64,000 nucleotides of DNA from Nemertoderma westbladi (Eukaryota > Animalia > Xenacoelomorpha), in assembly GCA_032718475.1 (NCBI GenBank), contig JAUCBJ010007946.1:1-64000 (forward strand). Direction: 5' to 3'. The stretch's first letter is position 1; each line of letters starts with the position of its first letter. Below, in pieces: positions 1-47,781 of the stretch. A model generated the notes under the pieces. The model saw only the letters and a program-made list of their open reading frames with translations. It was not told where the DNA came from and did not search any database. The translations under genes and the position numbers were made by a program.

Positions 1-3000
1 ATCTTGATTTGTATGTCAAGATTTCTAATGAGTATGGGAAACTTAGTGTCAAAGGATAACGGGGCGTTGGTGAGCCTGCCTCCAACACGTATTAACCCAT
101 CTATCATGGTACTAGAGAAGCGATCCCTTAAGCGCATCTGCGGATTTCTTAACAACAGGAAATACTTATCGGAATCCTCATAGCATTGTAGTAGTCTCAG
201 CATCTGTTTGTTGGTTTCATCATGCTCCTGGTAACTGATCTTCTCCTTTAGAAACCTGTCGGATATCTTGTATTTAGGAAGATCTTTAACAACATGGACT
301 CGTGCAGATGTTGATGGAGCATCATCACTATTGGTCTTTGTCCCGGAGTAACGATGATGAAAACATCGTTTCAAATAGGTGACAGCTTTACAGAGCCGAT
401 TCCAGGAACTGTAATGACGTATCACTCTCTGCAGGAGAGGTGAGAGTCCTTGCGCGATATCTGGTATTCCAGATTTCCAATCCCTGTCACGGATTTCCAA
501 GACTTCTTTAGTCGTGGCGGTGGGTTTCTGATCCAAAGCATCATCTCCGGAAGTAAATAATACAGATAGATCAACCGCAGGTTTAAACAACTTCGATTTA
601 CTCGCTCGAGTTTTGGGTTTAACTTTCTCCGCTCCCTTGGCCTGTCTGATCTCTGCTGTTGTGAGATGGGGAGGCCATTCTTCTTCTTCTCTGTAGAGAA
701 AGTCGGGTCCTCCTAACCATTCGGGAGTATTTACCAATTCCTTTGGAGTCGCTCCCCTGGAAGCGATGTCTGCTGGATTAATCGTTCCGGGGCAATGTCT
801 CCATTGATCCATCGTCGTGCGACTAAGTATGATGGCTACTCTGTTGGTAACGAAGACGCTGAACTGACAGACTTCATTGGTTATATACTCTAACACGAGT
901 AAAGCGTCGGTCCAATAGACAGTTTTCTCTAATGGATAGTCAATCTGTTCTGTTACATTCCGGCCGATGGCTGTAGCGTATAGAGCCGCCTTTAACTCCG
1001 CTCGAGGAACTTTCAACTTGTTGTTGATTAATGCCTTAGAAGTAACCAAGGCGACTTTGATTCCATCCGGAGTCTCCACTCTTAGGTAGGCTACTATACC
1101 TATTCCCATATCGCTGGCGTCTCCAAACACATGGAGTTGATAGGAATACGTAGGGAGAACATGACCAAAATATGAACGGGAAATTATAAAATCCTCGATA
1201 GCTGGCAGAGAATCTTCCCATTTCATCCACTTCTTTAATAATTCTCCCTTAAGTGGATCGTCCCATGAGTGGTTTTCAAGCCACATTTGTTGTACCAAAC
1301 TCCGAGCAATCAATATAACTGGGCTAATAAATCCCAATGGAACGAAATAAGTGCTCAGTATACTTAAACAAATCCGTTTGGTTCGAACTGGATTATCTCT
1401 CTGTTTTAGTTGGAAAAACAGGATATCTCGCTCTGTGTCCCATTTCAAGCCGAGTGTCTTGGTTTCTGGCAGATCATCTTTGATCAAATCGAGATCTTTC
1501 GCTCCTCGATCTTCCGCAGGGATCGACTCCAGAAACTCACGGGAGTTGCTGGTGAATTTCGTTAATCGAAACCCACCTCTTTTTAAGCACTCTACCGTTC
1601 CTTTAGCGACCTCAATGGCTTCCTCAACTGATGGAAGGGACTTCAGATTATCGTCCATGTATATGTCTCGCTTGATGTTGTCGATCACTTCCTTAGAGAA
1701 GGCCTCTCGGTTGTCCTCTGCAGTGGTACGCACTACCGAACAGGCGTTGGAAGGGCTTGAGATTATCCCAAAGGCCTGGATGGTCATCCAGTACTCCACC
1801 GGTTTCTGGTTGAGGTCTCCTTCGGGCCACCACAGAAATCGTAGACTATCTCGATCCCTATCTAGCACCTTGACTTGTAAGAACATGCCTTCTATATCGG
1901 AGGCGAAAGCAATCGAATATTGTCTCAATCTTAAAAGAATTCCCAACAAAGATTGAAGTAAGTTGGGTCCGGGTAACAATTCAGAGTTAAGGGATTGACC
2001 CATGTAAAGAGCGGAGCCATCAAACACTACTCTCACTTCATGTGGTTTACCGGGTTTAGGAACGTAATGGTGGGTTAAGTAATACGTTCTTTCAGTCACA
2101 GGTGTTTCTTCCGGTACTCTCTCCGCGTATCCCTTACTAATAAATTTTTCCAGCTGTGTTTGATACATTGCTTTAGCTGAAGAATTAGCCGTAAGGCGTC
2201 GATGGAGTTGCGCGATTCTTTTTTCCGCCAAAGGTCTGTTATTGATGAACTTCGGTTCTCTCTTGCGAAAAGGTAGACCGACTTCATACCTACCTTGATC
2301 TTTGAGGAAACGTGTAGTCGTCTCTTGGATCTGCTTGGCCCTTTCCTCTTCCACCGATAAGGCTTTATCGTAGGAATTGGGCTCTACCGCCTCTTGCGTA
2401 AAGAATCGTACAGCATGTTCATCTCGAGTCTTGGCATTACAACGCTCAATGACGTCATTTAACTCGTCGTTATAAGCTTCTCGTTCAGATGGATAAAGAA
2501 GTTGACATAAGTTCACTTGGTTTTGCCAAGCCTCGTTTTCCTTAAGGAGATCGATAGTATTCTCCTCATCAAAAAGCTGGTGAACGTCGTCGTTATCTGA
2601 GGAGTATGGAATTCCCTCAGTTAAATCGTCTCCCTCACTAGTATCATCTTCCCATTCACTCACCTGGCAAACGAGCTCTTGCGGTAGTCTTTCTCTGAGT
2701 GTTCTACGGGAAGGTCCAGTAAGGTACCAACCTACTCTAGTTCTTACCGCATAGGTCTGAAGTGGTTGCGGTTGAGTAGGTCGTTTCTCTAATGTCTCCA
2801 GCGCTTCATGCGCGTTTTGGCCGATGAGTATTTGCACTCCAGGATAATCAGTCTGGAACCGAGGTATCTTAAGATGTTGGATGCTTTCATCCTCGTCCCA
2901 ATTATAAAGGTCTGCTTGAGTAGTAGCGAAGTTCTTTATAGCCACCAATTTCACTGACCTTATGCTATGTTCTCCTAGTTCGTCCTGGGGGGTGGACAAC

Positions 3001-6000
3001 GCTCCTACATAATAATCCGCTGTTACTGTAGATTTCCAAACTTGCATAATTCCTGACATATTTAGCTTGGTTCGGAACTTGGGTTGTCCAGCGAAGATGT
3101 CTTCGGCTAGTTCTTTATCAATGAATGTTCCTGTGCTACCGGAGTCAAGGAGGGCGTTCACTACATAACTCCTTTTAGGTCCGTGAACCCTTACCTGAAC
3201 CACAGGAAACTCTCGGATCCCTACATTGGAAGATGGCGCTTTCCAAGATGGTTGTCGATCAGAAGTAGTTAGAGTGAGGTCGCTGTCTGTATCTTTTTCA
3301 TATGTGAGTGCTCGATACACTGCGGTATTTATCATGTAACAGGATTCGTTTTCGTCGGAGAACTCGTCTGTATAGAATCCTTCCATCTCAGATTGATCAG
3401 TGTCGTTCACATCACTGAATTGGACATGTAGCTCGGAATCACTTACCTGATTCGGACTATTTCGCTCGAATTCAGCGTGCAACAAGATATGATGTTTCGC
3501 ACCACACTTTGCACACCTTATGTCAGAGAAACAGGTACGCCGTTGGTGTCCTTGTCTGAGGCAATTATAACATAACCGCTTATCCCACATGACTTCTCGT
3601 CTCTCCGATAATGATTTCTTCAGGAATTCATCACACATATTCAAACGGTGGGTCCCGTCGCATAGCGCACATTTCGGTTTGATGTTACTTACCTTATTTT
3701 GGGTAACATTTTGCACTCTCGTTCTTTCTTCGGGCTTTCTCACCTGAATTCTCTTGGGAGACGTAGGAGGAGTTTTTCTTACCTGTTCTCTCTGGTCATT
3801 GGATCGAGACTTAAATTTACTTCCCTGTTCATTAGGTTTTTTATTGACATAATAAGATCTTTCAGTGTCTTTCCCGCTATCCTCCCCTTGGGAAGCTTGG
3901 CTTTCGCCGTCGTCGGTATAACACACTGGTGTTACCTTTCTTCTGGAGACGGGTTTCTCACTTACCTTGTTTTCCGATGTCTTCTCTCTGGACTGCTTTA
4001 TGAGCTGTAATTTCACTTCGCCATCCAAGAATGTCATGAGATCAGTCATGGTAGGGTCTCGTTGTTGTTGTTCCATCATGTATAACACTTTCTTGTCCCA
4101 GCGTGTACCTACTCCACCCTTCGGTAAAGTAGAAGCCACTGCTCTAATAACCATAGCACTCTGATACTCATGAGACTTACCTAGCCAATCTAATTGTCTG
4201 CAGATCTCCTGAATTTCATCGGAAAACTCTATAATCCCGTTGCTAATAAACTTTCGGGGCGCTACCAACTTTGCATACAAATACCCAGCTATGTTATTCC
4301 TATTACCATACCTGATGTTTAGTGTATCCCAAACTTGTCTTAATCCGTCTGGATGTCCAATAAACTTTAATGCCATTAACTTGGGAGATCCTTCCAAGCA
4401 CTCGATGAGGAATCTAAGTTTCTCTCCATTAGATAGTACAGAGTTCTGTATGTTATCTTTGTAATATTCATTAAAAGGTAACCATTTCATCTCATCTCCA
4501 TTGAACTTGACGATCTCTCCCACCTTTACCGCTTGCCGGGCTTCGGTTCTAGCCATTTGGCGCGTAAAACTTTCTTGGGCCATCGTGTTATTTAATATCG
4601 AGTTATCGGTATATAAATTTCTCGGATTATGATCAGGTCTATAGGGAATGTCATTATCAACAGGTCTATAATTACCCTTAATAGGGTTCACTATAGGAGT
4701 TTCTACTTCGCTAGCAGTATATATGCGTGTAGGCTCCACACCTTGCGCATGAGATACTTCAGACCTAACAGGTTGACACATTGCTACTGAGGGTGGTGGT
4801 ATACCCCTTTGTGTATTTACTAATTTATCGCGTTCTAGCGCGATACTTTGCTGCACTTCTTGCAACTCTAGTCTACTTTCCCTTACTGTGCCCTTGAATT
4901 GCTGAACAGTCTCCTGCATCTGCCCGAGCAGGAGATCCATCCCCCGCCGTCTCTCGTCCACCCATTCGACCGCAGAAGCGGGAGTCGCCAATGATGTAGC
5001 GGGCGGACGAGGGACAACGGGTGACAAATCATGAATATTTCGCTCGGGGTCCAGGACCTGAACTGTCTCATGGGCTGTTCTACTGGGCACAGGTAGCTTG
5101 GTGCTGTGCAGAGGGAATTTAGAGGTAACTTCAGGGAGCACAGGTGTGTCTATCACCGAAGGGGTGATTTCAAGAACAGGCCTAATTATTTCAGGCTCAT
5201 CTACTATAGTAGGGAGTCTTTCTATTTTAATTATTTGGTCTGTGGGTTCTGTACTACCTAAGTTGGTGTTATTTAGTTGCCTTCTAACAGCTGGAGGCAA
5301 ATCAGGCAATTTCTGACGGTGGGATGTTCTTCTACGTCTGCTGAGACGAGATCTATTTCCTTTGCCTTCAGTATCGGTGGTATCGCCTTCCTCAGATGAT
5401 GTATATCCCTGTCTTTTGGGAGTAGATCGATTCATCATCTGCATATTACTAGCTGTTAACTGTTTATTTATGCAGTCTTGATTCTCCTGAATGATTTCCA
5501 ATTCTAATTGGATGGTTTCTTCAGCCGCTCTCCGTTCTGCTTCTGCCACTGCCTCTGCCGCTTTTCTTTCCGCTTCGGCCGCTGCCATTGCCGCCTTTCT
5601 TTCTGCTTCTGCCGCTTTTGCCTCTGCCGCTGCCTCTGCCGCTGCCGCTTTTGCCTCTGCCGCTGCCTCTGCCGCTTTTGCCTCTGCCGCTGCCTCTGCC
5701 GCTGCCGCTTTTCTTTCTGCTTCTGCAGCTGCCACTGCTGCTGCTACTGCCGCTGCCTTTCTGTCTTCTATACGTTTTTTCTTTACTTGTTCTTCTTGGA
5801 CTCTTGTGATGCGGAGTTGTTCATCAAATTTAGCCTGGTTCGCAGCCCTCATTTCCACATCGATGGCATCCAACACACGCTGAGTTCCTTCACTATTAGG
5901 GCTAAGTCCATCTAACCTTCTCCTCAACTCTTCATCACCTAAAAAACGTTGATAGTCTGACAGATAGATGTCAATGGCATCCCTCTTATGCGGCTTCTCT

Positions 6001-6932
6001 GCCGTCGCTTCACTTTCCACTTGGGAAAAAGTAGCGTCTGTTGATTCTCCATGGGTTGAGCGCTCCTCTAGCTGGGCTTTCCACTGAGCCGTTCCTTGAA
6101 CCAGGAGACTCACCCGTTGAAACCAAGTCTTTACAGCAACTTGCAACGACGTGTCTTGTCTTCGTTTAGAAGCCTCCTCAAAGGCTGATAAGATTAGCCT
6201 GATTCGCAGAATTCTTTCTCTAACTTGATAAAGCAGTTGTCCCTGCTCTTGAGGTCCTTGTGGTTGTTGAAACAGTTGTCCTTTTACTCGCTCCATAGAG
6301 CTGAAGAATCCCTGTGCGTATCCGGCCGCGGACCTCTTCCACACAGCTGGATCTATGGTTTCCTTGGCTACTCCCATCCAGTGTATGTCTTCCCAGGCAG
6401 CTTCTGATAAATCAAACGGGAGTCCGGGTCCGGGGAAGTTCCATTGCGACTCGACAATAGACTTCAGTTCTTCCCTTGTGTATCCCGCATAACTATCTTT
6501 AGTTGATCGCTGACTTCTCGCCCAATCGATCTGGTGTTCTTCCACCGCAATCAATAACCTAGTGAGTACGGCTGCAGGAAGGATGAGAAGGGGATCCGAA
6601 TAAACCGCATCCGTCATCTTTGCTCCGCGCTCAAGTGTCAGCTCTACAGTATCCTCACTACTGGAGCTGTCGGGCCGCTGAGAAATAAGTTCTTGGCTCG
6701 CGGGTTGTTGCTGTTCTGCTGCTTCTTGGTCCCGCTTGACCTGAGCTCGAGTGCCTATGATAGACCTACGATGTTGGACCAGCCTAGGTTCTGTTATTAC
6801 TACTGGAGGGATGACCTTCCTCACAGTGGGAGGTGAACTGAACTTATGACTAGATGGTTCTACACCTCTATCTGAGTCGCAGATAGTTACATCTAATAAA
6901 CTGTCTGACAGGTTCTGCTTAGTATCAGACAT
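1..6932 (-). CDS. BEL/Pao gag-pol polyprotein (Gag with Cys/His knuckles, aspartic protease, RT, RNase H), 3'-partial
   Basis: ATG at 6932 is in frame with RT IYMDDNL (~1658). Motifs read by eye: KFNGDEMKWLPF (~4490); CALCDGTHRLNMC, CYNCLRQGHQRRTC, CAKCGAKHHILLH (3480-3675); ALLDSGSTGTF (~3140); HVFGDASD (~1120); VPRAEL; VYWTDA; WRHCPGTINPADIASRG (~780). Probably absent from the ORF track because it runs off the edge without a stop. Not every codon was checked. Confidence 0.9.
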   Translation of the reverse strand, partial: MSDTKQNLSDSLLDVTICDSDRGVEPSSHKFSSPPTVRKVIPPVVITEPRLVQHRRSIIGTRAQVKRDQEAAEQQQPASQELISQRPDSSSSEDTVELTLERGAKMTDAVYSDPLLILPAAVLTRLLIAVEEHQIDWARSQRSTKDSYAGYTREELKSIVESQWNFPGPGLPFDLSEAAWEDIHWMGVAKETIDPAVWKRSAAGYAQGFFSSMERVKGQLFQQPQGPQEQGQLLYQVRERILRIRLILSAFEEASKRRQDTSLQVAVKTWFQRVSLLVQGTAQWKAQLEERSTHGESTDATFSQVESEATAEKPHKRDAIDIYLSDYQRFLGDEELRRRLDGLSPNSEGTQRVLDAIDVEMRAANQAKFDEQLRITRVQEEQVKKKRIEDRKAAAVAAAVAAAEAERKAAAAEAAAEAKAAEAAAEAKAAAAEAAAEAKAAEAERKAAMAAAEAERKAAEAVAEAERRAAEETIQLELEIIQENQDCINKQLTASNMQMMNRSTPKRQGYTSSEEGDTTDTEGKGNRSRLSRRRRTSHRQKLPDLPPAVRRQLNNTNLGSTEPTDQIIKIERLPTIVDEPEIIRPVLEITPSVIDTPVLPEVTSKFPLHSTKLPVPSRTAHETVQVLDPERNIHDLSPVVPRPPATSLATPASAVEWVDERRRGMDLLLGQMQETVQQFKGTVRESRLELQEVQQSIALERDKLVNTQRGIPPPSVAMCQPVRSEVSHAQGVEPTRIYTASEVETPIVNPIKGNYRPVDNDIPYRPDHNPRNLYTDNSILNNTMAQESFTRQMARTEARQAVKVGEIVKFNGDEMKWLPFNEYYKDNIQNSVLSNGEKLRFLIECLEGSPKLMALKFIGHPDGLRQVWDTLNIRYGNRNNIAGYLYAKLVAPRKFISNGIIEFSDEIQEICRQLDWLGKSHEYQSAMVIRAVASTLPKGGVGTRWDKKVLYMMEQQQRDPTMTDLMTFLDGEVKLQLIKQSREKTSENKVSEKPVSRRKVTPVCYTDDGESQASQGEDSGKDTERSYYVNKKPNEQGSKFKSRSNDQREQVRKTPPTSPKRIQVRKPEERTRVQNVTQNKVSNIKPKCALCDGTHRLNMCDEFLKKSLSERREVMWDKRLCYNCLRQGHQRRTCFSDIRCAKCGAKHHILLHAEFERNSPNQVSDSELHVQFSDVNDTDQSEMEGFYTDEFSDENESCYMINTAVYRALTYEKDTDSDLTLTTSDRQPSWKAPSSNVGIREFPVVQVRVHGPKRSYVVNALLDSGSTGTFIDKELAEDIFAGQPKFRTKLNMSGIMQVWKSTVTADYYVGALSTPQDELGEHSIRSVKLVAIKNFATTQADLYNWDEDESIQHLKIPRFQTDYPGVQILIGQNAHEALETLEKRPTQPQPLQTYAVRTRVGWYLTGPSRRTLRERLPQELVCQVSEWEDDTSEGDDLTEGIPYSSDNDDVHQLFDEENTIDLLKENEAWQNQVNLCQLLYPSEREAYNDELNDVIERCNAKTRDEHAVRFFTQEAVEPNSYDKALSVEEERAKQIQETTTRFLKDQGRYEVGLPFRKREPKFINNRPLAEKRIAQLHRRLTANSSAKAMYQTQLEKFISKGYAERVPEETPVTERTYYLTHHYVPKPGKPHEVRVVFDGSALYMGQSLNSELLPGPNLLQSLLGILLRLRQYSIAFASDIEGMFLQVKVLDRDRDSLRFLWWPEGDLNQKPVEYWMTIQAFGIISSPSNACSVVRTTAEDNREAFSKEVIDNIKRDIYMDDNLKSLPSVEEAIEVAKGTVECLKRGGFRLTKFTSNSREFLESIPAEDRGAKDLDLIKDDLPETKTLGLKWDTERDILFFQLKQRDNPVRTKRICLSILSTYFVPLGFISPVILIARSLVQQMWLENHSWDDPLKGELLKKWMKWEDSLPAIEDFIISRSYFGHVLPTYSYQLHVFGDASDMGIGIVAYLRVETPDGIKVALVTSKALINNKLKVPRAELKAALYATAIGRNVTEQIDYPLEKTVYWTDALLVLEYITNEVCQFSVFVTNRVAIILSRTTMDQWRHCPGTINPADIASRGATPKELVNTPEWLGGPDFLYREEEEWPPHLTTAEIRQAKGAEKVKPKTRASKSKLFKPAVDLSVLFTSGDDALDQKPTATTKEVLEIRDRDWKSGIPDIAQGLSPLLQRVIRHYSSWNRLCKAVTYLKRCFHHRYSGTKTNSDDAPSTSARVHVVKDLPKYKISDRFLKEKISYQEHDETNKQMLRLLQCYEDSDKYFLLLRNPQMRLRDRFSSTMIDGLIRVGGRLTNAPLSFDTKFPILIRNLDIQIK

Positions 6933-8249
6933 GTTTGTGTGTACAGTTGAATGCCTACTGCTATATTACAGTCTGAGCAAGTCTAGTAATTCAGTATTAA
7001 CTGCTAGCCTAGTAATTAATTACCGATACTGCTACTCAGTGTAGCGCGATATATATAATATATTAGAATACCGGTATGCTTATAGTATATATAACTATAT
7101 AAGTTTTATTACAGACTAGGTTTATCACAGAATACCGGTATAATTTTAGCACAAATATATATAAATATATAATAGGCCTATCGGGAATACCGGTATACAG
7201 CTTACAGTTTGTAGTATATATAATTCTGGACTAGAATTAATTACAAGTACAGGTATAATTTCAGCCTAAATTTATAGAAATAAAGATAATAGGCCTATCG
7301 TAAATACCGGTATATCAATTATTTTAAATAATTGAATTTCTGAATTTTAGGGTTACTTGGTTACTTTACTTACTTTATTACCGTTATTTGAGCAGTAGTC
7401 CAACTGATATTGAGACCTAATGGTTGTATGGTAGGCCTACTATTTATAAATCGTTAGATTTGATTTATAATATATATACCCGTTTTAATGGGTTTTGTCA
7501 ATGTTTGAAATAAATGTTATTATTTCTGGGGAGTAATTACTACACAAAGCGGTGCGCTTTCAGTGAAGTGTTACTTATAGGACACTAAAACAAATAATGC
7601 TAATTTACCTAAGTTACTTAATACTACAAATTACGTACAATTCGGGTGAGATTACAATCTCTAAATAAACACAAAAATTTACAAAAAACACAAAATACGA
7701 ATTTTTAGGGTAATTTTACAAGAAGTCTACAAACCAGCCTACCAAAGGGTTAGAAATCTGGTTATTACAACGGACAGGGTTCTACGGTATTTGAAAATAA
7801 TAAGTAGTAGTAAATACACTGCGTTGTCCAGATAAGAAAATACCACCGCCTGACGACCTATAGCCGTATCGCTATAGGTTCTACGTTATGTATGACGGAG
7901 TGTTCCTACCTAGAAGTTAATAGAGCTAATCGAACGTGCCTATCAACCACTTTACAACACAAATATAATGCCTACACTAATTACTTTCGGAAAGCACTGT
8001 ACACTAAACCCTAAATTAGGTACGAGTACTTGTACAACAGATAATCAGTAGTTAAATATACTTGAACAGCTAAAAGAACCACGGCATCTGCTGGAGTGAC
8101 CGGTGCACAAAATCACCAGTCTTTACCTACGCCAAGCAGCCCGTGTAGTACCGGGGTTAATTTAACTATAACGGTATGTATAACAAACACAATTACTGTA
8201 GGAACAAACTTGGGGAATGAATGTTGCGGATAATCGCATAAACTCTGAA

Positions 8250-30235: not shown

Positions 30236-30567
30236 ATGATGGTGTCCATGAGACCAGACGGAGATAAATCGACCAACCCATCGAACTCCATTCGCCTCCG
30301 TGGCATCAAGCAATCGAACTCGGTTAATGGAAATGGCGTCAACCATTCAAATCATTTCAATAGCCCGGGTCAACGTCAACCCCAACCTATACCGCCGCGT
30401 AGAAAGAAGAAAGAGTCGTGGTGGTGTCGAGTACAGAACTCAACGAAGAGATTTCTACAACCGGCGAACAATAGAGCCATTGCTGTGTTGATTTCCGATT
30501 ATTCGCTTTTCATTTTCAGTCCGAATAATTTTATACGAAAATGGTGCAAAAGATTTATAGAGTGGCC
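30236..30567 (+). CDS. Cav2: Cav2 exon 1 (N-terminus; start uncertain, possible acceptor at 30223)
   Basis: SLFIFSPNNFIRKWCKRFIEWP, followed by the U12 donor ATATCCTTT. Confidence 0.85.
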
Positions 30568-30987
30568 ATATCCTTTACGAGCAATTTCTGTACATTTATA
30601 GCTGTACATTTGTTATTACTTCAAATCATTACATAAGACCGTAGGTATCATCCAGTCTACTCATTCAGTCTAATCTTAATTAGTTAATTTAAGCAGGGGT
30701 GGGGTGCCTTGAGTTTTGTCCCACGAACTACAAAAAAAAGTAAACAGTACGTTAGATTTTGATTTGATGGGCCTATGGCCCAAAACATATCACGATGTTT
30801 AAGGCCCTGGCCCTGTTTGGTTTATATCAAATTTCCTATTGTTTATGTAATTGGATGGGAAAACTCCAGTGAACTTTAGGGAACTAAAATGCTACAGTCA
30901 GTGCCACGATAACAATATCCAATAGAAATAGTAATTGTATAACACATTTACTCTTTGTTATGATATTTTCCTTAACCACTTTCTCAC
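30568..30987 (+). other. U12-type AT-AC intron (420 bp)
   Basis: 5' ATATCCTTT, branch point TTCCTTAAC at 30968-30976, 3' CAC; joins EWP|PVEY in frame. Confidence 0.95.
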
Positions 30988-40061: not shown

Positions 40062-40177
40062 AGAGTTTGCCAAAGAAAAGGAGCGGGTGGAAAATCGTGA
40101 AGCTTATCAAAAGTTAAGACGGAAACAACAACTGGAGCGGGAGTTGGAAGGTTACTTGGATTGGCTCGCTAAAGCAG
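40062..40177 (+). CDS. Cav2: Cav2 exon 8 (I-II linker, AID)
   Basis: [38 protein letters not shown]. Confidence 0.96.
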
Positions 40178-40364
40178 GTTATTAACAACATAAATGATAG
40201 CTGGAAAGTTATTGAAAGTAGAGGGTATTGAAACAGTCTGTAAGCCTTTGCTGAGAGAGCTACTAAACCTAACACATTACTCAAGCTACAAAACTCATAC
40301 TCAAACGTAGTACTCAAAACTCATACGTAATAAGTATTTCATTCAAGTATTTTAACAACTTCGA

Positions 40365-40775
40365 CGGCGGGGCTAGCTCAGTTGGTTGAGTGCTGGGCTT
40401 ACACATTCATTGGTTGCTGATTCTAGCCCTGCATCGTTCTCAGCCTTTCAAAGACTGGGTTCAATAAAATGAAAATGAGATCGACAAGAAAGCTGTGCCG
40501 TGTTTATTGTGGCATGAACAATGAACACATCTCCAATCAGTCTCTATAGAACATTGGAGGTGTTTCATTTGTCTCCCCTAGCTTGACACTTGAACGAAGC
40601 CGCCTCCGCTTTGCAGGACATTGCTTTAGACATAAGGGCTAACCGGTGCATAATCGTATGCTTTGGGTAACTGATGGAGTGAATAAACATGGCAGGCAGC
40701 CAGTCCATGACTTTTTTGAGACGCATCTCAAGGACCCTCTGGCTTTAAAAATTGCGGATGACATGCGGACACAAA
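40365..40775 (+). mobile_element. Degenerate tRNA-like head followed by an RTE-like LINE 3' fragment
   Basis: TAGCTCAGTTGG A-box-like sequence at ~40374; HISNQSL and SRLRFAGHCFR peptides at 40525-40630. Confidence 0.5.
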
Positions 40776-41808
40776 ATTTAGTACACTAACGGTACTCATA
40801 TTAAATGCTCTTTAATGCATTACTTTTTAATCATACCATAAATACCTCCTAACTTCAATCTATGTATTTAAAAGATAAAACCCGTATATGACATTTAATT
40901 GAAAAAAATATAATTTTAAAATAAATCAGTATAATCAACAATTATTTATTAATGATTAATTATAATGTCCCAAGTCATTTTACTTGAATTATGTGGCATC
41001 TGCAACCAAACAACAGTCAGACATTGCCATCTGTCACACATGCTAAATTGAATTGCAGCTATATTTATATTTATTAGTTGGGGGTGGATATTTATCCGAA
41101 ATATTAATTCCTGACACATAGAAATCAGTGAGGCACTTTGATGAAGAGTACAAGTCATTAGCTGGAAGAATATATGCGCCACGCGGTGTTTCGGATAATA
41201 AGGTTGTCTGCAATTCGTCCCAGAACACACTGTCTTCCAATCAGAAATTCATTTATGTCAAGTGCTTATTAGACTCCAGAGATGAGGACAACCCAGTAGC
41301 TTCTGGACTTTGCCAACACACTCTAGTTTTTCAACCAATACCTATCGACCATATGGTTGTGTGGTTGCACTTCTCAACAGTAGTGGTGTAGCTTGCGCTT
41401 TCCAAGATACTTATTTTATGTGACACCATCGATTTTTTCCCCAAATCGATTCCATTTCCTCTCCATTTACATAGACTGAAAATTAGAATCAAACAGAATG
41501 ATAGTACATACCGTCTCAATTAGATGCATTAGTACGATGCATGAGTACAGCGGTCGTGATTAGCTTAATCCGTAAAATCTCTAGCATGGGTCGGAATGAT
41601 ATTCTGTGGCTACCGGCATAGTGTATACTCTTAGAATTACTTTTATTACAGGAAGGGATCTAGGGACCTTCCTGTAATAAATGTATCATAACAAACACCT
41701 CGAAAAAAATACAGCTTGCCAAAACCTTGTTACTATCAATAATAAAAATCAGGGGCTAATAAAATGGCAGCTGGCTTTGAAATTAATACTCCATATCTCA
41801 AGAACCTG

Positions 41809-41861
41809 TGGCCTAGTGGTTGTTGTCTCGGCTTCCACCTCGAGGTCCTAGGTTCGAATCC
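41809..41861 (+). promoter_or_regulatory. Type 2 RNA Pol III internal promoter (A and B boxes), repeated in each unit
   Basis: A box TGGCCTAGTGG at 41809-41819; B box GGTTCGAATCC at 41851-41861. Confidence 0.8.
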
Positions 41862-41912
41862 GACACCACGCTGATGAGACCCAGTAAGGTCGAAACGCGT
41901 ACGAGGTTTGGA
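41859..41912 (+). ncRNA. Type I hammerhead ribozyme, copy 1 (one stem I mismatch)
   Basis: ACCACG-CTGATGA-GACC(CAGTAA)GGTC-GAAA-CGCG-TA-CGAGGT; predicted cut after 41901. Confidence 0.88.
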
Positions 41913-42270
41913 GAGATATGAGATATTAATTTCAAGAAAAATTACGCGATTCCTAAATTTGTACACTACCCGGTTATAAAGTACGCATGTGATGGGATTA
42001 GTCCTACAATTGCGCCAATAAAAGATAAGTTATTTTCGGTAAAATAAACTTATCATTCGAGGTTAAGACCCCTAGATCCCTTCCTGTAATAAATGTATCA
42101 TAACAAACACCTCGAAAAAAATACAGCTTGCCAAAACCTTGTTACTATCAATAATAAAAATCAGGGGCTAATAAAATGGCAGCTGGCTTTGAAATTAATA
42201 CTCCATATCTCAAGAACATGTGGCCTAGTGGTTGTTGTCTCGGCTTCCACCTCGAGGTCCTAGGTTCGAA

Positions 42271-42324
42271 TCCGACACCACGCTGATGAGACCCAGTAAG
42301 GTCGAAACGCGTACGTGGTTTGGA
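42271..42324 (+). ncRNA. Type I hammerhead ribozyme, copy 2
   Basis: CTGATGA at 42283; perfect stem I ACCACG/CGTGGT. Confidence 0.92.
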
Positions 42325-42681
42325 GAGATATGAGATATTAATTTCAGAAAAATTACGCGATTCCTAAATTTGTACACTACCCGGTTATAAAGTACGCATG
42401 TGATGGGATTAGTCCTACAATTGCGCCAATAAAAGATAAGTTATTTTCGGTAAAATAAACTTATCATTCGAGGTTAAGACCCCTAGATCCCTTCCTGTAA
42501 TAAATGTATCATAACAAACACCTCGAAAAAAATACAGCTTGCCAAAACCTTGTTACTATCAATAATAAAAATCAGGGGCTAATAAAATGGCAGCTGGCTT
42601 TGAAATTAATACTCCATATCTCAAGAACCTGTGGCCTAGTGGTTGTTGTCTCGGCTTCCACCTCGAGGTCCTAGGTTCGAA

Positions 42682-42735
42682 TCCGACACCACGCTGATGA
42701 GACCCAGTAAGGTCGAAACGCGTACGTGGTTTGGA
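42682..42735 (+). ncRNA. Type I hammerhead ribozyme, copy 3
   Basis: CTGATGA at 42694. Confidence 0.92.
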
Positions 42736-43092
42736 GAGATATGAGATATTAATTTCAAGAAAAATTACGCGATTCCTAAATTTGTACACTACCCGGTTAT
42801 AAAGTACGCATGTGATGGGATTAGTCCTACAATTGCGCCAATAAAAGATAAGTTATTTTCGGTAAAATAAACTTATCATTCGAGGTTAAGACCCCTAGAT
42901 CCCTTCCTGTAATAAATGTATCATAACAAACACCTCGAAAAAATACAGCTTGCCAAAACCTTGTTACTATCAATAATAAAAATCAGGGGCTAATAAAATG
43001 GCAGCTGGCTTTGAAATTAATACTCCATATCTCAAGAACCTGTGGCCTAGTGGTTGTTGTCTCGGCTTCCACCTCGAGGTCCTAGGTTCGAA

Positions 43093-43146
43093 TCCGACAC
43101 CACGCTGATGAGACCCAGTAAGGTCGAAACGCGTACGTGGTTTGGA
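43093..43146 (+). ncRNA. Type I hammerhead ribozyme, copy 4
   Basis: CTGATGA at 43105. Confidence 0.92.
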
Positions 43147-43503
43147 GAGATATGAGATATTAATTTCAAGAAAAATTACGCGATTCCTAAATTTGTACAC
43201 TACCCGGTTATAAAGTACGCATGTGATGGGATTAGTCCTACAATTGCGCCAATAAAAGATAAGTTATTTTCGGTAAAATAAACTTATCATTCGAGGTTAA
43301 GACCCCTAGATCCCTTCCTGTAATAAATGTATCATAACAAACACCTCGAAAAAATACAGCTTGCCAAAACCTTGTTACTATCAATAATAAAAATCAGGGG
43401 CTAATAAAATGGCAGCTGGCTTTGAAATTAATACTCCATATCTCAAGAACCTGTGGCCTAGTGGTTGTTGTCTCGGCTTCCACCTCGAGGTCCTAGGTTC
43501 GAA

Positions 43504-43557
43504 TCCGACACCACGCTGATGAGACCCAGTAAGGTCGAAACGCGTACGTGGTTTGGA
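43504..43557 (+). ncRNA. Type I hammerhead ribozyme, copy 5
   Basis: CTGATGA at 43516. Confidence 0.92.
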
Positions 43558-43915
43558 GAGATATGAGATATTAATTTCAAGAAAAATTACGCGATTCCTA
43601 AATTTGTACACTACCCGGTTATAAAGTACGCATGTGATGGGATTAGTCCTACAATTGCGCCAATAAAAGATAAGTTATTTTCGGTAAAATAAACTTATCA
43701 TTCGAGGTTAAGACCCCTAGATCCCTTCCTGTAATAAATGTATCATAACAAACACCTCGAAAAAAATACAGCTTGCCAAAACCTTGTTACTATCAATAAT
43801 AAAAATCAGGGGCTAATAAAATGGCAGCTGGCTTTGAAATTAATACTCCATATCTCAAGAACCTGTGGCCTAGTGGTTGTTGTCTCGGCTTCCACCTCGA
43901 GGTCCTAGGTTCGAA

Positions 43916-43969
43916 TCCGACACCACGCTGATGAGACCCAGTAAGGTCGAAACGCGTACGTGGTTTGGA
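43916..43969 (+). ncRNA. Type I hammerhead ribozyme, copy 6
   Basis: CTGATGA at 43928. Confidence 0.92.
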
Positions 43970-44327
43970 GAGATATGAGATATTAATTTCAAGAAAAATT
44001 ACGCGATTCCTAAATTTGTACACTACCCGGTTATAAAGTACGCATGTGATGGGATTAGTCCTACAATTGCGCCAATAAAAGATAAGTTATTTTCGGTAAA
44101 ATAAACTTATCATTCGAGGTTAAGACCCCTAGATCCCTTCCTGTAATAAATGTATCATAACAAACACCTCGAAAAAAATACAGCTTGCCAAAACCTTGTT
44201 ACTATCAATAATAAAAATCAGGGGCTAATAAAATGGCAGCTGGCTTTGAAATTAATACTCCATATCTCAAGAACCTGTGGCCTAGTGGTTGTTGTCTCGG
44301 CTTCCACCTCGAGGTCCTAGGTTCGAA

Positions 44328-44381
44328 TCCGACACCACGCTGATGAGACCCAGTAAGGTCGAAACGCGTACGTGGTTTGGA
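44328..44381 (+). ncRNA. Type I hammerhead ribozyme, copy 7
   Basis: CTGATGA at 44340. Confidence 0.92.
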
Positions 44382-44740
44382 GAGATATGAGATATTAATT
44401 TCAAGAAAAATTACGCGATTCCTAAATTTGTACACTACCCGGTTATAAAGTACGCATGTGATGGGATTAGTCCTACAATTGCGCCAATAAAATATAAGTT
44501 ATTTTCGGTAAAATAAACTTATCATTCGAGGTTAAGACCCCTAGATCCCTTCCTGTAATAAATGTATCATAACAAACACCTCGAAAAAAATACAGCTTGC
44601 CAAAACCTTGTTACTATCACATAATAAAAATCAGGGGCTAATAAAATGGCAGCTGGCTTTGAAATTAATACTCCATATCTCAAGAACCTGTGGCCTAGTG
44701 GTTGTTGTCTCGGCTTCCACCTCGAGGTCCTAGGTTCGAA

Positions 44741-44794
44741 TCCGACACCACGCTGATGAGACCCAGTAAGGTCGAAACGCGTACGTGGTTTGGA
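44741..44794 (+). ncRNA. Type I hammerhead ribozyme, copy 8
   Basis: CTGATGA at 44753. Confidence 0.92.
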
Positions 44795-45248
44795 GAGATA
44801 TGAGATATTAATTTCAAGAAAAATTACGCGATTCCTAAATTTGTACACTACCCGGTTATAAAGTACGCATGTGATGGGATTAGTCCTACAATTGCGCCAA
44901 TAAAAGATAAGTTATTTTCGGTAAAATAAACTTATCATTCGAGGTTAAGACCCCTAGATCCCTTCCTGTAATAAATGTATCATAACAAACACCTCGAAAA
45001 AAATACAGCTTGCCAAAACCTTGTTACTATCAATACTTAGAATTACTGACATCGTCACTTGACATAGGCAAGCAAGGTGACTCGCCTACATTATGTAACA
45101 ATAGGAATCATATTGATCACTATGGAGCCAGGCGTAGAGTGACCTAGATACACATTGTTAGACCACTTAGCTTATACATATTGCTAACTGTATTATGTTG
45201 ATGTTCTAATATTGTTCGAGATTATTTATTACGTCGTTTCTGTTGCAG

Positions 45249-45404
45249 ACGAGATTGATCTTAACGAGTCTAAGATGACCGACGCCGAGAAGGCGATGTA
45301 CCGCGCCCAGAGAGGTTTAAGCAAAGCTCACATATCAATGGATGACGATGATGAAGATGAGGAAATGGACACAGATATTGAGGAAAACGATAACATTGAA
45401 ATAG
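45249..45404 (+). CDS. Cav2: Cav2 exon 9 (acidic I-II linker)
   Basis: DEIDLNESKMTDAEK...DDDDEDEE...IEI; phase 1 at both ends, matching neighbours. Confidence 0.85.
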
Positions 45405-47781
45405 GTACCCGTTACATTACAGATACCGTAACGCAATAACGGTTTATTAATAGGTAACCGTTACACTACAGATACCGTAACGCAATAACAGTTTATTAAT
45501 AGGTACCCGTTACATTACAGATACCGTAACGCAATAACGGTTTATTAATAGGTACCCGTTACATTACAGTTACCGTAACGCAATAACGGTTTATTAATAG
45601 GTAACCGTTACATTACAGATACCGTAACGCAATAACGGTTTTTTAATAGGTAACCGTTCCATTACAGATAAAGTAACACAATAACGGTTTAGTAATAGGT
45701 AACCGTTCCATTACAGATACTGTAACGCAATAACGGTTTATTAAAGGGTAACCCTTACATTACAGATAACGTAACGCAATAACAGTTTATTAATAGGTAA
45801 CCATTACATTACAGATACCGTAACACAATAACGGTTTATTAATAGGTAACCGTTTCATTACAGATACCGTAACACAATAACGGTTTATTAATAGGTACCC
45901 GTTCCATTACAGATACCGTGACGCAATAACGGTTTATTAATAGGTAACCGTTACATTACAGATACCGTAACGCAATAACGGTTTATTAATAGGTAACCGT
46001 TCCATTACAGATACCGTAACGCAATAACGGTTTATTAATAGGTAACCGCCGTTACATTACAGATACCGTAACGCAATAGCGGTTTATTATTAGGTAACCG
46101 TTACATTACAGATACCGTAACGCAATAACGGTTTATTATTAGGTAACCGTTACATTACAGATAAAGTAACACAATAACGGTTTATTAATAGGTAACCGTT
46201 ACATTACAGATACCGTAACGCAATAACGTTTTATTATTAGGTAACCGTTACATTACAGATACCGTAACGCAATAACGGTTTATTATTAGGTAACCATTAC
46301 ATTACAGATACCGTAACGTAATAATGGTTTATTAATAGGTAACCGTTACATTACAGATACCGTAACGCAATAACGGTTTATTAATAGGACCGTTACATTA
46401 CAGATAAAGTAACACAATAACGGTTTATTAATAGGTAACCGTTACATTACAGATACCGTAACGCAATAACGGTTTATTAATAGGTAACCGTTACATTACA
46501 GATAACGTAACTCAATAACGGTTTATTAATAGGTAACCGTTACATTACAGATACCGTAACGCAATAACGGTTTATTAATAGGACCGTTACATTACAGATA
46601 AAGTAACACAATAACGGTTTATTAATAGGTAACCGTTACATTACAGATACCGTAACGCAATAACGGTTTATTAATAGGTAACCGTTACATTACAGATACC
46701 GTAACGCAATAACGGTTTATTAATAGGTAACCGTTACATTACAGATAACGTAACTCAATAACGGTTTATTAATAGGTAACCGTTACATTACAGATACCGT
46801 AACGCAATAACGGTTTATTTATAGGTAACCGTTACATTACATATAACGTAACTCAATAACGGTTTATTAAGAGGTAACCGTTACATTACAGATACCGTAA
46901 CGCAATAACGGTTTATTATTAGGTAACCGTTACATTACAGATAAAGTAACACAATAACGGTTTATTAATAGGTAACCGTTACATTACAGATAAAGTAACA
47001 CAATAACGGTTTATTAATAGGTAACCGTTACATTACAGATACCGTAACGCAATAACGGTTTATTAATAGGTAACCGTTACATTACAGATACCGTAACGCA
47101 ATAACGGTTTATTAATAGGTAACCGTTACATTACAGATACCGTAACACAATAACGGTTTATTAATAGGTAACCGTTACATTACAGATACCGTAACGCAAT
47201 AACGGTTTATTAATAGGTAACCGTTACATTACAGATACCGAAAACGCAATAACTGTTTATTAATAGGTAACCGTTACATTACAGATACCGTAACGCAATA
47301 ACGGTTTATTAATAGGTAACCGTTACATTACAGATACCGTAACGCAATACCGGTCTATTAATAGGTAACCGTTACATTACAGATACCGTAACGCAATAAC
47401 GGTTTATTAATAGGTAACCGTTACATTACAGATACCGTAACGCAATAACGGTTTATTAATAGGTAACCGTTACATTACAGATACCGTAACGTAATAATGG
47501 TTTATTAATAGGTAACCGTTACATTTCAGATACCGTAACGCAATAACGGTTTATTAATAGGTAACCGTTACATTACAGATACCGTAACGCAATAACGGTT
47601 TATTAATAGGTAACCATTACATTACAGATACCGTAACGCAATAACGGTTTATTAATAGGTAACCGTTACATTACAGATACCGTAACACAATAACGGTTTA
47701 TTAATAGGTAACTGTTACATTACAGATAAAGTAACACAATAACGGTTTATTAATAGGTAACCGTTACATTACAGATAAAGT
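45400..47781 (+). repeat. 49-bp tandem repeat starting at the exon 9 splice donor, ~48 copies
   Basis: Unit AATAG|GTAACCGTTACATTACAGATACCGTAACGCAATAACGGTTTATT; first copy overlaps the last 5 exon nt. Confidence 0.96.

Follow-up and report, generated by a model that had tools for sequence, protein, structure and literature searches.

Hammerhead repeats within intron 8 of a Cav2 gene

The 64,000-nucleotide stretch of Nemertoderma westbladi DNA considered here (contig JAUCBJ010007946.1, positions 1 to 64,000; hereafter the window) carries on its + strand a Cav2-type calcium-channel gene that starts at about 30236, and the eighth intron of this gene holds a tandem array of repeats, each bearing a predicted hammerhead ribozyme. 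Summed over the window, proteins labelled Cav2 gave 673-845 bits (6/6), compared with 480-604 bits for proteins labelled Cav1 or L-type (7/7). Exon 8 (40062-40177, + strand), which encodes the end of the IS6 region and the AID, gave its top scores on Cav2.2, Cav2.1 and Cav2.3 chains. In the comparison of exon 6 no close protein was found, those with at least 90% coverage being 45-54% identical. Seven coding exons precede exon 8 within the window, and the number given to intron 8 is valid if exon 1 is 30236-30567.

Intron 8 (40178-45248, + strand) is a GT-AG intron of 5071 nt when filled by the array and of 1665 nt when empty. Exons 8 and 9 (the latter at 45249-45404, + strand) were recognized by homology and through a 2253-nt contig of X4, one of the sequencing runs designated X1 to X5, which passes from exon 8 (record positions 1385-1501) to exon 9 at 45249 and on to exon 10, using the predicted junctions. 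This run is filed as 'DNA?' and was treated as complementary DNA on account of the exon-joined contig. Among the seven runs listed in all, none was entered as RNA, from which nothing follows about expression. Read-through from exon 8 into the intron adds two further codons before a stop (...LAKAGY-stop).

The direct arm of the array (41667-45035, + strand) comprises 8.2 units of 411-413 bp, as delimited by a tandem-repeat scan at period 412 with 99% matches. The 412-bp unit has 39% GC; its longest ATG frame is 56 codons, and short frames of 56 and 36 codons recur in each unit (41681-41851 in the window). Monomers taken from one predicted cut to the next are 0-4 letters apart in 21 of 21 pairs. 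No further copy of the unit was found elsewhere in the window.

Every tandem unit bears a type I hammerhead core (8/8). An earlier note on this DNA had claimed eight sense-strand self-cleavage sites in intron 8 past the AID exon, and eight CTGATGA...GAAAC cores do indeed stand on the + strand; none passing the stem test was found on the - strand. Cleavage is predicted at the triplet GUA, after 41901, 42313, 42724, 43135, 43546, 43958, 44370 and 44783. The first of these cuts lies 1724 nt past the exon 8 donor and the last 465 nt upstream of exon 9, in agreement with the roughly 450 nt of the note. A pattern of B box plus core had eight matches in the window and none in 100 window shuffles, while the full hammerhead descriptor was matched in 0 of 3000 unit shuffles. 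At the gathering score Rfam returned no match on the array; its Hammerhead_HH9 model scored 26.6 bits (E 0.00035) against a cut-off of 52. The strict stem test was passed by seven of the eight cores. Hammerhead 1 (41859-41912, + strand, predicted cut after 41901) fails it owing to a mismatch in helix I (41904); hammerhead 2 (42271-42324, + strand, predicted cut after 42313) is typical of copies 2-8, the last of which is hammerhead 8 (44741-44794, + strand, predicted cut after 44783).

In copies 2-8, helix I has 6+5 bp with a bulge between, helix II has 4 bp and a 6-nt loop, and helix III consists of the palindrome ACGCGU alone. Predicted pair probabilities in contexts of 120 to 820 nt are 0.74-0.97 for helix I and 0.99-1.0 for helix II. 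Closing helix III within a monomer is predicted to cost 5.2 kcal/mol, whereas the palindromic duplex would gain 9.5. Tandem copies therefore probably supply each other's helix III partner, since this helix is unfavourable within one copy and favourable between two. An axolotl family with a helix III palindrome cuts at 6% per hour alone and far better as dimers (PMC7229834); among predicted retrozyme dimers of Xenopus, one of nine cut in vitro (10.64898/2026.07.22.740005). The cut-to-cut monomer has a predicted fold z of -4.11, which none of 100 shuffles equalled and which was kept in the circular fold; a long helix joins sequence upstream of the A box to sequence just past the cut. Because the monomer folds far better than shuffles, the folded entity appears to be the unit-length RNA, which the family would make whichever polymerase transcribes it.

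The repeat family is very high-copy in the DNA runs, in whose contigs circular unit RNA and tandem copies are indistinguishable. The summed depth of X1 on the unit, 186,000-447,000 against 41-48 on the flanks, was rejected as a measure of copy number. Family sequence is also present in X4, none of it with the letters of the array at 41824 and 41849; as contigs drop rare variants, X4 allows no conclusion on this array. Run X5, which bears another organism label, yielded one 441-nt contig (a unit plus 30) near the family majority at depth 13.8 and no further part of the stretch, and may reflect carry-over or a shared family. A strict search pattern had no match in metagenome contigs; a relaxed one had 12 there and three in viral contigs, none of which resemble the array element.

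Elsewhere in the gene, intron 1 (30568-30987) is of the AT-AC type, with a ATATCCTT donor, a TTCCTTAAC branch motif at 30968 and an AC acceptor; minor-class introns are known from calcium-channel genes. A 49-bp minisatellite of 48.5 copies (45400-47777) starts on the exon 9 donor; a donor-like TAG-GTA(A/C)C occurs in it 45 times, and the first of these is the one used in the X4 contig. Within intron 8, a second very high-copy repeat fragment and a decayed tRNA-like head with raised depth were seen at 40502-40627 and 40338-40410. Pfam matched none of three intronic open stretches (0/3).

A polymorphic insertion and its origin

The array lies between two copies of a 12-bp target-site duplication, CTTAGAATTACT, at 41630-41641 and 45036-45047 (both + strand). 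Next to the left copy stands an inverted arm of 24 nt (41642-41665, - strand), the reverse complement of part of the unit, which is followed by one extra A at 41666 and whose first 15 nt pair with 41667-41681. The insertion totals 3406 bp and triples intron 8 from 1665 to 5071 nt.

An empty allele was found in run X2, which comes from another sample (S2) and another study than X1. Its empty-site contig, of 689 nt and depth 22.6, aligns 41344-41641 with record positions 392-689 and 45036-45425 with 14-403; the 12 shared letters are the single copy of the duplication, and a loose end corresponds to window 41600-41629. Very few letters of the empty-haplotype flanks differ from the window. In X1, both filled junctions lie in unbranched contigs with no differing letters, at depths of 40.7 and 42.5 compared with 48.3 nearby, and the inverted arm is contained in the contig that covers 40602-41696; this run shows one haplotype, the filled one, with no branch at the duplication. 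Runs X1, X2, X4 and X5 were compared with the left flank and the first unit, and X1-X4 with the right flank, the records of the two comparisons being equated by length, depth and coordinates. Run X3, from the same sample as X2, starts at 45062, short of the insertion site, and is uninformative. At 41193-41373, X2 holds two haplotypes, one identical to the window and the other with 10 different letters in about 180, and the empty-site contig carries the summed depth of both.

The array is likely a recent polymorphic insertion that one sample carries and another lacks. A brief literature search for an already described polymorphic retrozyme insertion in an animal led to PMC8557442 and a review, too narrow a search to imply that none has been published. 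As it is absent from sample S2, it is no conserved or evolved control element of Cav2. In the available parts of the accounts, the HDV-like (hepatitis delta virus-like) ribozyme of mouse Cpeb3 (PMC10919898) and the RECK-type hammerheads of amniotes (PMC6155905) resemble the array in placing a sense self-cleaving motif, predicted in our case, within the intron of a gene with a neuronal or regulatory role, where it could in principle race splicing. However, those motifs are single and conserved, whereas the array is eightfold, repeat-borne and missing from another sample of the same species label. A domesticated intronic ribozyme of this kind was accordingly rejected, the array not being fixed.

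Letters that depart from the family majority occur at 41723, 41726, 41824, 41849 and 41977, in 9/9, 9/9, 8/8, 8/8 and 8/8 copies, respectively; two of the five were confirmed in the X1 junction contig. Because these array-specific letters are present in every copy, the copies appear to descend from one template. The two ends of copying fall 60 A/C-rich bases apart, in the 41741 register for the long arm and in the 41681 register for the short one; both are internal to the unit and coincide with neither the ribozyme cut nor the TTTT run described below, and each of the starts is on an AATAAA.

This arrangement recalls Penelope-like elements. The purified enzyme of such an element nicks and extends both strands, with two internal RNA starts that share no homology with the target (PMC11167929), and in the available text of PMC8557442 an adjacent inverted 5′ copy is a hallmark of the group. 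The array shares with these elements the apparent internal starts lacking target homology, the apparent extension of both strands and, as far as the available parts of the two accounts go, the tandem copies with an adjacent inverted 5′ copy. It differs in having no reverse transcriptase frame (no reverse transcriptase plus GIY-YIG frame was found in the array element) and in starts 60 nt apart instead of 30-40. Retrozymes have been proposed to use Penelope-like elements (PMC7229834, 10.64898/2026.07.22.740005), and we consider it likely that this insertion was made by a Penelope-type route.

Alternatively, the array could be a short insertion that slippage or unequal exchange enlarged locally in a minisatellite-rich genome, with the ribozymes as inert passengers. 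Many long tandem arrays do lie within the window, adjoining units have equal A-run lengths, and local amplification of an inserted dimer has been proposed for retrozymes (10.64898/2026.07.22.740005). However, a site that is still polymorphic, a perfect duplication and near-identical flanks leave little time for such growth, and the 8.2-unit phase together with the inverted arm requires a template that was circular or longer than one unit. We regard growth in place as rather improbable.

Internal promoter, multimeric RNA and related elements

Motifs of a tRNA-type promoter stand directly ahead of the hammerhead in all eight units, with the predicted A box at 41809-41819 and B box at 41851-41861 of unit 1 (+ strand), a layout found in 0 of 10000 shuffles. 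ARAGORN and Rfam made no tRNA call for the unit head, nor was there a tRNA call in the left flank of the array. According to the earlier note, a TTTT run near 42033, inside a hairpin and some 235 nt from the start, could stop RNA polymerase III (Pol III), and the multimeric precursor would then come from transcription by host RNA polymerase II (Pol II). The position and the hairpin are as it claimed: TTTT at 42033-42036 is the sole run of four T in the unit, lies 235 nt from the inferred start near 41802 and is part of a 13-bp hairpin (42024-42054, + strand, fold z -3.95).

The conclusion drawn from them is not supported. As the TTTT sits in the 5′ arm of the hairpin, whose 3′ arm would exist only once the polymerase had passed the run, the hairpin would be of no help to termination. 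The run is also probably leaky, and one read-through suffices for a cut-to-cut monomer. In human cells TTTT stopped 65% of the transcripts of a short interspersed element (SINE) construct and about 95% for a tRNA gene, according to the available part of PMC8466645, and what is available of PMC6765202 reports Pol III multimers from Sm-alpha repeats, which have the same layout. Moreover, the RNA copied at this site would itself have run past TTTT, because each end of copying is on the downstream side of the run. Depletion of T runs, considered as a mark of Pol III read-through, was rejected, with one run of four T against 1.5-1.7 expected (P about 0.5).

Nor would the Cav2 locus serve as the general source of unit RNA, because the family is very high-copy; the array, besides, is missing in sample S2. 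The proposal that channel-expressing cells release unit-length RNAs is sound to the extent that any Pol II pass would give an 8-mer and potentially seven monomers, but multimers need not be confined to Pol II. Host Pol II in carriers would contribute some unit RNA.

The element is very probably a metazoan non-LTR (lacking long terminal repeats) retrozyme with an Sm-alpha-like head. With the non-LTR retrozymes (PMC7229834, 10.64898/2026.07.22.740005) it shares tandem non-coding units of 150-450 bp with less than 50% GC and one type I hammerhead each, a target duplication longer than 4 bp (12 bp here), a self-paired monomer and the common occurrence of intronic copies; with the axolotl family HHR_Amex1 it shares the helix III palindrome. 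The array differs in showing an empty allele, an inverted arm and two internal starts at one site, and its tRNA-type promoter and five AATAAA per unit go unmentioned in the available parts of those accounts. Cleavage and circles were shown for the described retrozymes, whereas here they are predicted from sequence.

The resemblance to the schistosome Sm-alpha repeats, as far as the accessible parts of PMC6765202 and PMC2576457 describe them, lies in a type I hammerhead placed directly behind the A and B boxes, in tandem copies and in a promoter that the cut leaves at the monomer's 3′ end. A copy of the Sm-alpha type, with promoter and hammerhead, is present in an intron of all SmPoMuc mucin genes, and a role in transcript processing was proposed for it in 2008 (PMC2576457, available part). 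The likeness is one of layout. The unit here differs in its 412 bp and dimer-type helix III, and eight intronic copies stand in place of one.

Unrelated to the Cav2 array, hammerhead cores were also noticed after a tRNA CCA end in phage- or prokaryote-type tRNA clusters (L002, 910-1010; L004, 405-495; L006, 840-945; L010, 850-945). Three of these four are just ahead of tRNA-His and would, by prediction, be cut about one base upstream of the called start, near G-1; a brief literature search found no published description. The window also contains a Pao/BEL retrotransposon frame of 2321 codons (3-6965, minus strand; Peptidase_A17, DUF1759).

Possible effects on the channel message

A race between ribozyme cleavage and exon 8-9 splicing is kinetically possible. 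With Pol II moving at 1-4 kb per min and cleavage rates taken from PMC7229834, cleavage at 0.01 per min would sever an estimated 14% of transcripts or fewer ahead of the synthesis of exon 9; the estimate rises to 29-78% for 0.1 per min and to 93-100% for 0.8 per min. Cuts in the nascent Cav2 transcript could thus outrun splicing, so that the filled allele would yield less mRNA and channel-expressing cells would set unit RNAs free. The eight sense cores with their stable predicted helices I and II favour such an outcome, as do the neighbouring copies that would act as dimer partners, the precedent of Cpeb3 and the under-representation of retrozymes in Xenopus introns. We consider it unlikely nonetheless. 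At rates of 0.01 per min or below, no more than 14% of transcripts would be cut in time, and the Xenopus dimers mentioned above cut in vitro in one case of nine. In the available account, introns cut by hammerheads in cells were spliced normally and the faster HDV ribozyme alone blocked splicing (Dye 2006, Fong 2009, cited in PMC2995048). The distance from the donor to the first cut, the mismatch of copy 1 and the presence of the filled allele alone in the carrier sample also speak against it, as does the fact that 42-44% of Xenopus retrozymes overlap introns, even if this is fewer than expected by length (10.64898/2026.07.22.740005). The filled-only carrier sample is, in addition, a weak sign that the insertion is not a lethal null.

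The array might also act on the message through poly(A) signals. Each unit has five sense AATAAA compared with 0.80 expected (10000 dinucleotide shuffles, P 0.0006, a post hoc value, the motif having been picked after about seven were viewed) and no antisense one; 41 lie in the array and three in the remaining 1677 nt of intron 8. A motif search places a predicted arrangement of poly(A) signals upstream of the ribozyme in each unit (41673-41828 in unit 1, + strand), with TGTA at 41673 and 41682, AATAAA at 41676, 41741 and 41758 and a GU-rich stretch at 41806-41828; the two further AATAAA of unit 1 are at 42017 and 42043. If the array were mainly a poly(A) trap, a share of transcripts would end in intron 8, and their mRNA would encode domain I and the AID plus two intron codons before the stop. 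The excess of hexamers, both per unit and over the rest of the intron, the TGTA upstream and GU-rich sequence downstream of 41758, and the nearby read-through stop fit this proposal, which we nevertheless judge improbable. Suppression of intronic poly(A) sites by U1 is general, the 3′ ends in intron 8 are predicted from motifs, and an animal with this allele alone was sampled. Furthermore, the hexamers may serve the element itself, as both copying starts are on AATAAA, and one AATAAA lies 10 nt ahead of TTTT, as in the T+ SINEs of the available part of PMC8466645. In favour of an effect, domain I fragments cut Cav2.2 current by about 90% in oocytes in what is available of PMC2801285.

A stronger version, in which the insertion is a natural Cav2 knock-down whose poly(A) signals and paired cuts yield a short message for domain I and the AID while neurons shed retrozyme circles, is very doubtful in our view. 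If it were true, the product would be of the fragment type that suppresses Cav2 channels, and it could bind the beta subunit. On balance we lean towards a small effect, or none, of the insertion on channel mRNA.

As a whole, the locus is best explained by one recent event in which a Penelope-type reverse transcriptase copied retrozyme RNA, either circular or multimeric; the host gene would probably tolerate the insertion and not be regulated by it. We hold this explanation to be fairly probable. Family RNA would be transcribed from the internal tRNA-type promoter, with the leaky TTTT read through, and Pol II would add to it from genic copies. Ribozyme pairs joined via the ACGCGU palindrome would cut this RNA, and the monomers would circularise. 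At the target, an endonuclease would make a 12-nt staggered cut, after which one DNA end would prime copying from an internal A-rich site in the 41741 register and be extended through 8.2 rounds. The other end would prime 60 nt farther upstream, in the 41681 register, and be extended by 24 nt before the two copies were joined. In carriers, some Cav2 transcripts may be cut in intron 8; most exon 8-9 splicing would survive, given the 1.7-kb lead of the donor over the first cut and the dependence of each ribozyme on a partner.

Several points weigh against this explanation. L1-type twin priming also yields 5′ inversions, and insertion of a dimer followed by amplification in place would look similar. 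Judged on this one insertion, the gap between the starts is 60 nt, compared with the 30-40 nt tail of Penelope elements. The unit number is known from the assembly alone; X1 may be the source of that assembly, and contigs drop rare alleles. Cleavage, circles, transcript ends and the Pol III signal are all predicted or deduced. As to tolerance by the host, the estimates for 0.1 and 0.8 per min would mean frequent cutting, the array has added 41 sense AATAAA to the intron, and the mouse Cpeb3 ribozyme lowers its host mRNA, with higher output once it was blocked (PMC10919898, available part).

The class of elements is known and common, and the array adds one more non-LTR retrozyme to it, found while the insertion is still polymorphic. 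Evidence on the movement of these elements is limited (10.64898/2026.07.22.740005), and the empty allele, the perfect duplication, the inverted arm and the letters of one template in every copy bear on whether such arrays arise at insertion. Its value as a test case lies in two alleles, one filled and one empty, whose haplotypes are nearly identical. Reporter studies on intronic ribozymes disagree by ribozyme speed, and this pair would allow one to measure, without engineering, whether intronic hammerheads or poly(A) signals lower the mRNA of their host gene.

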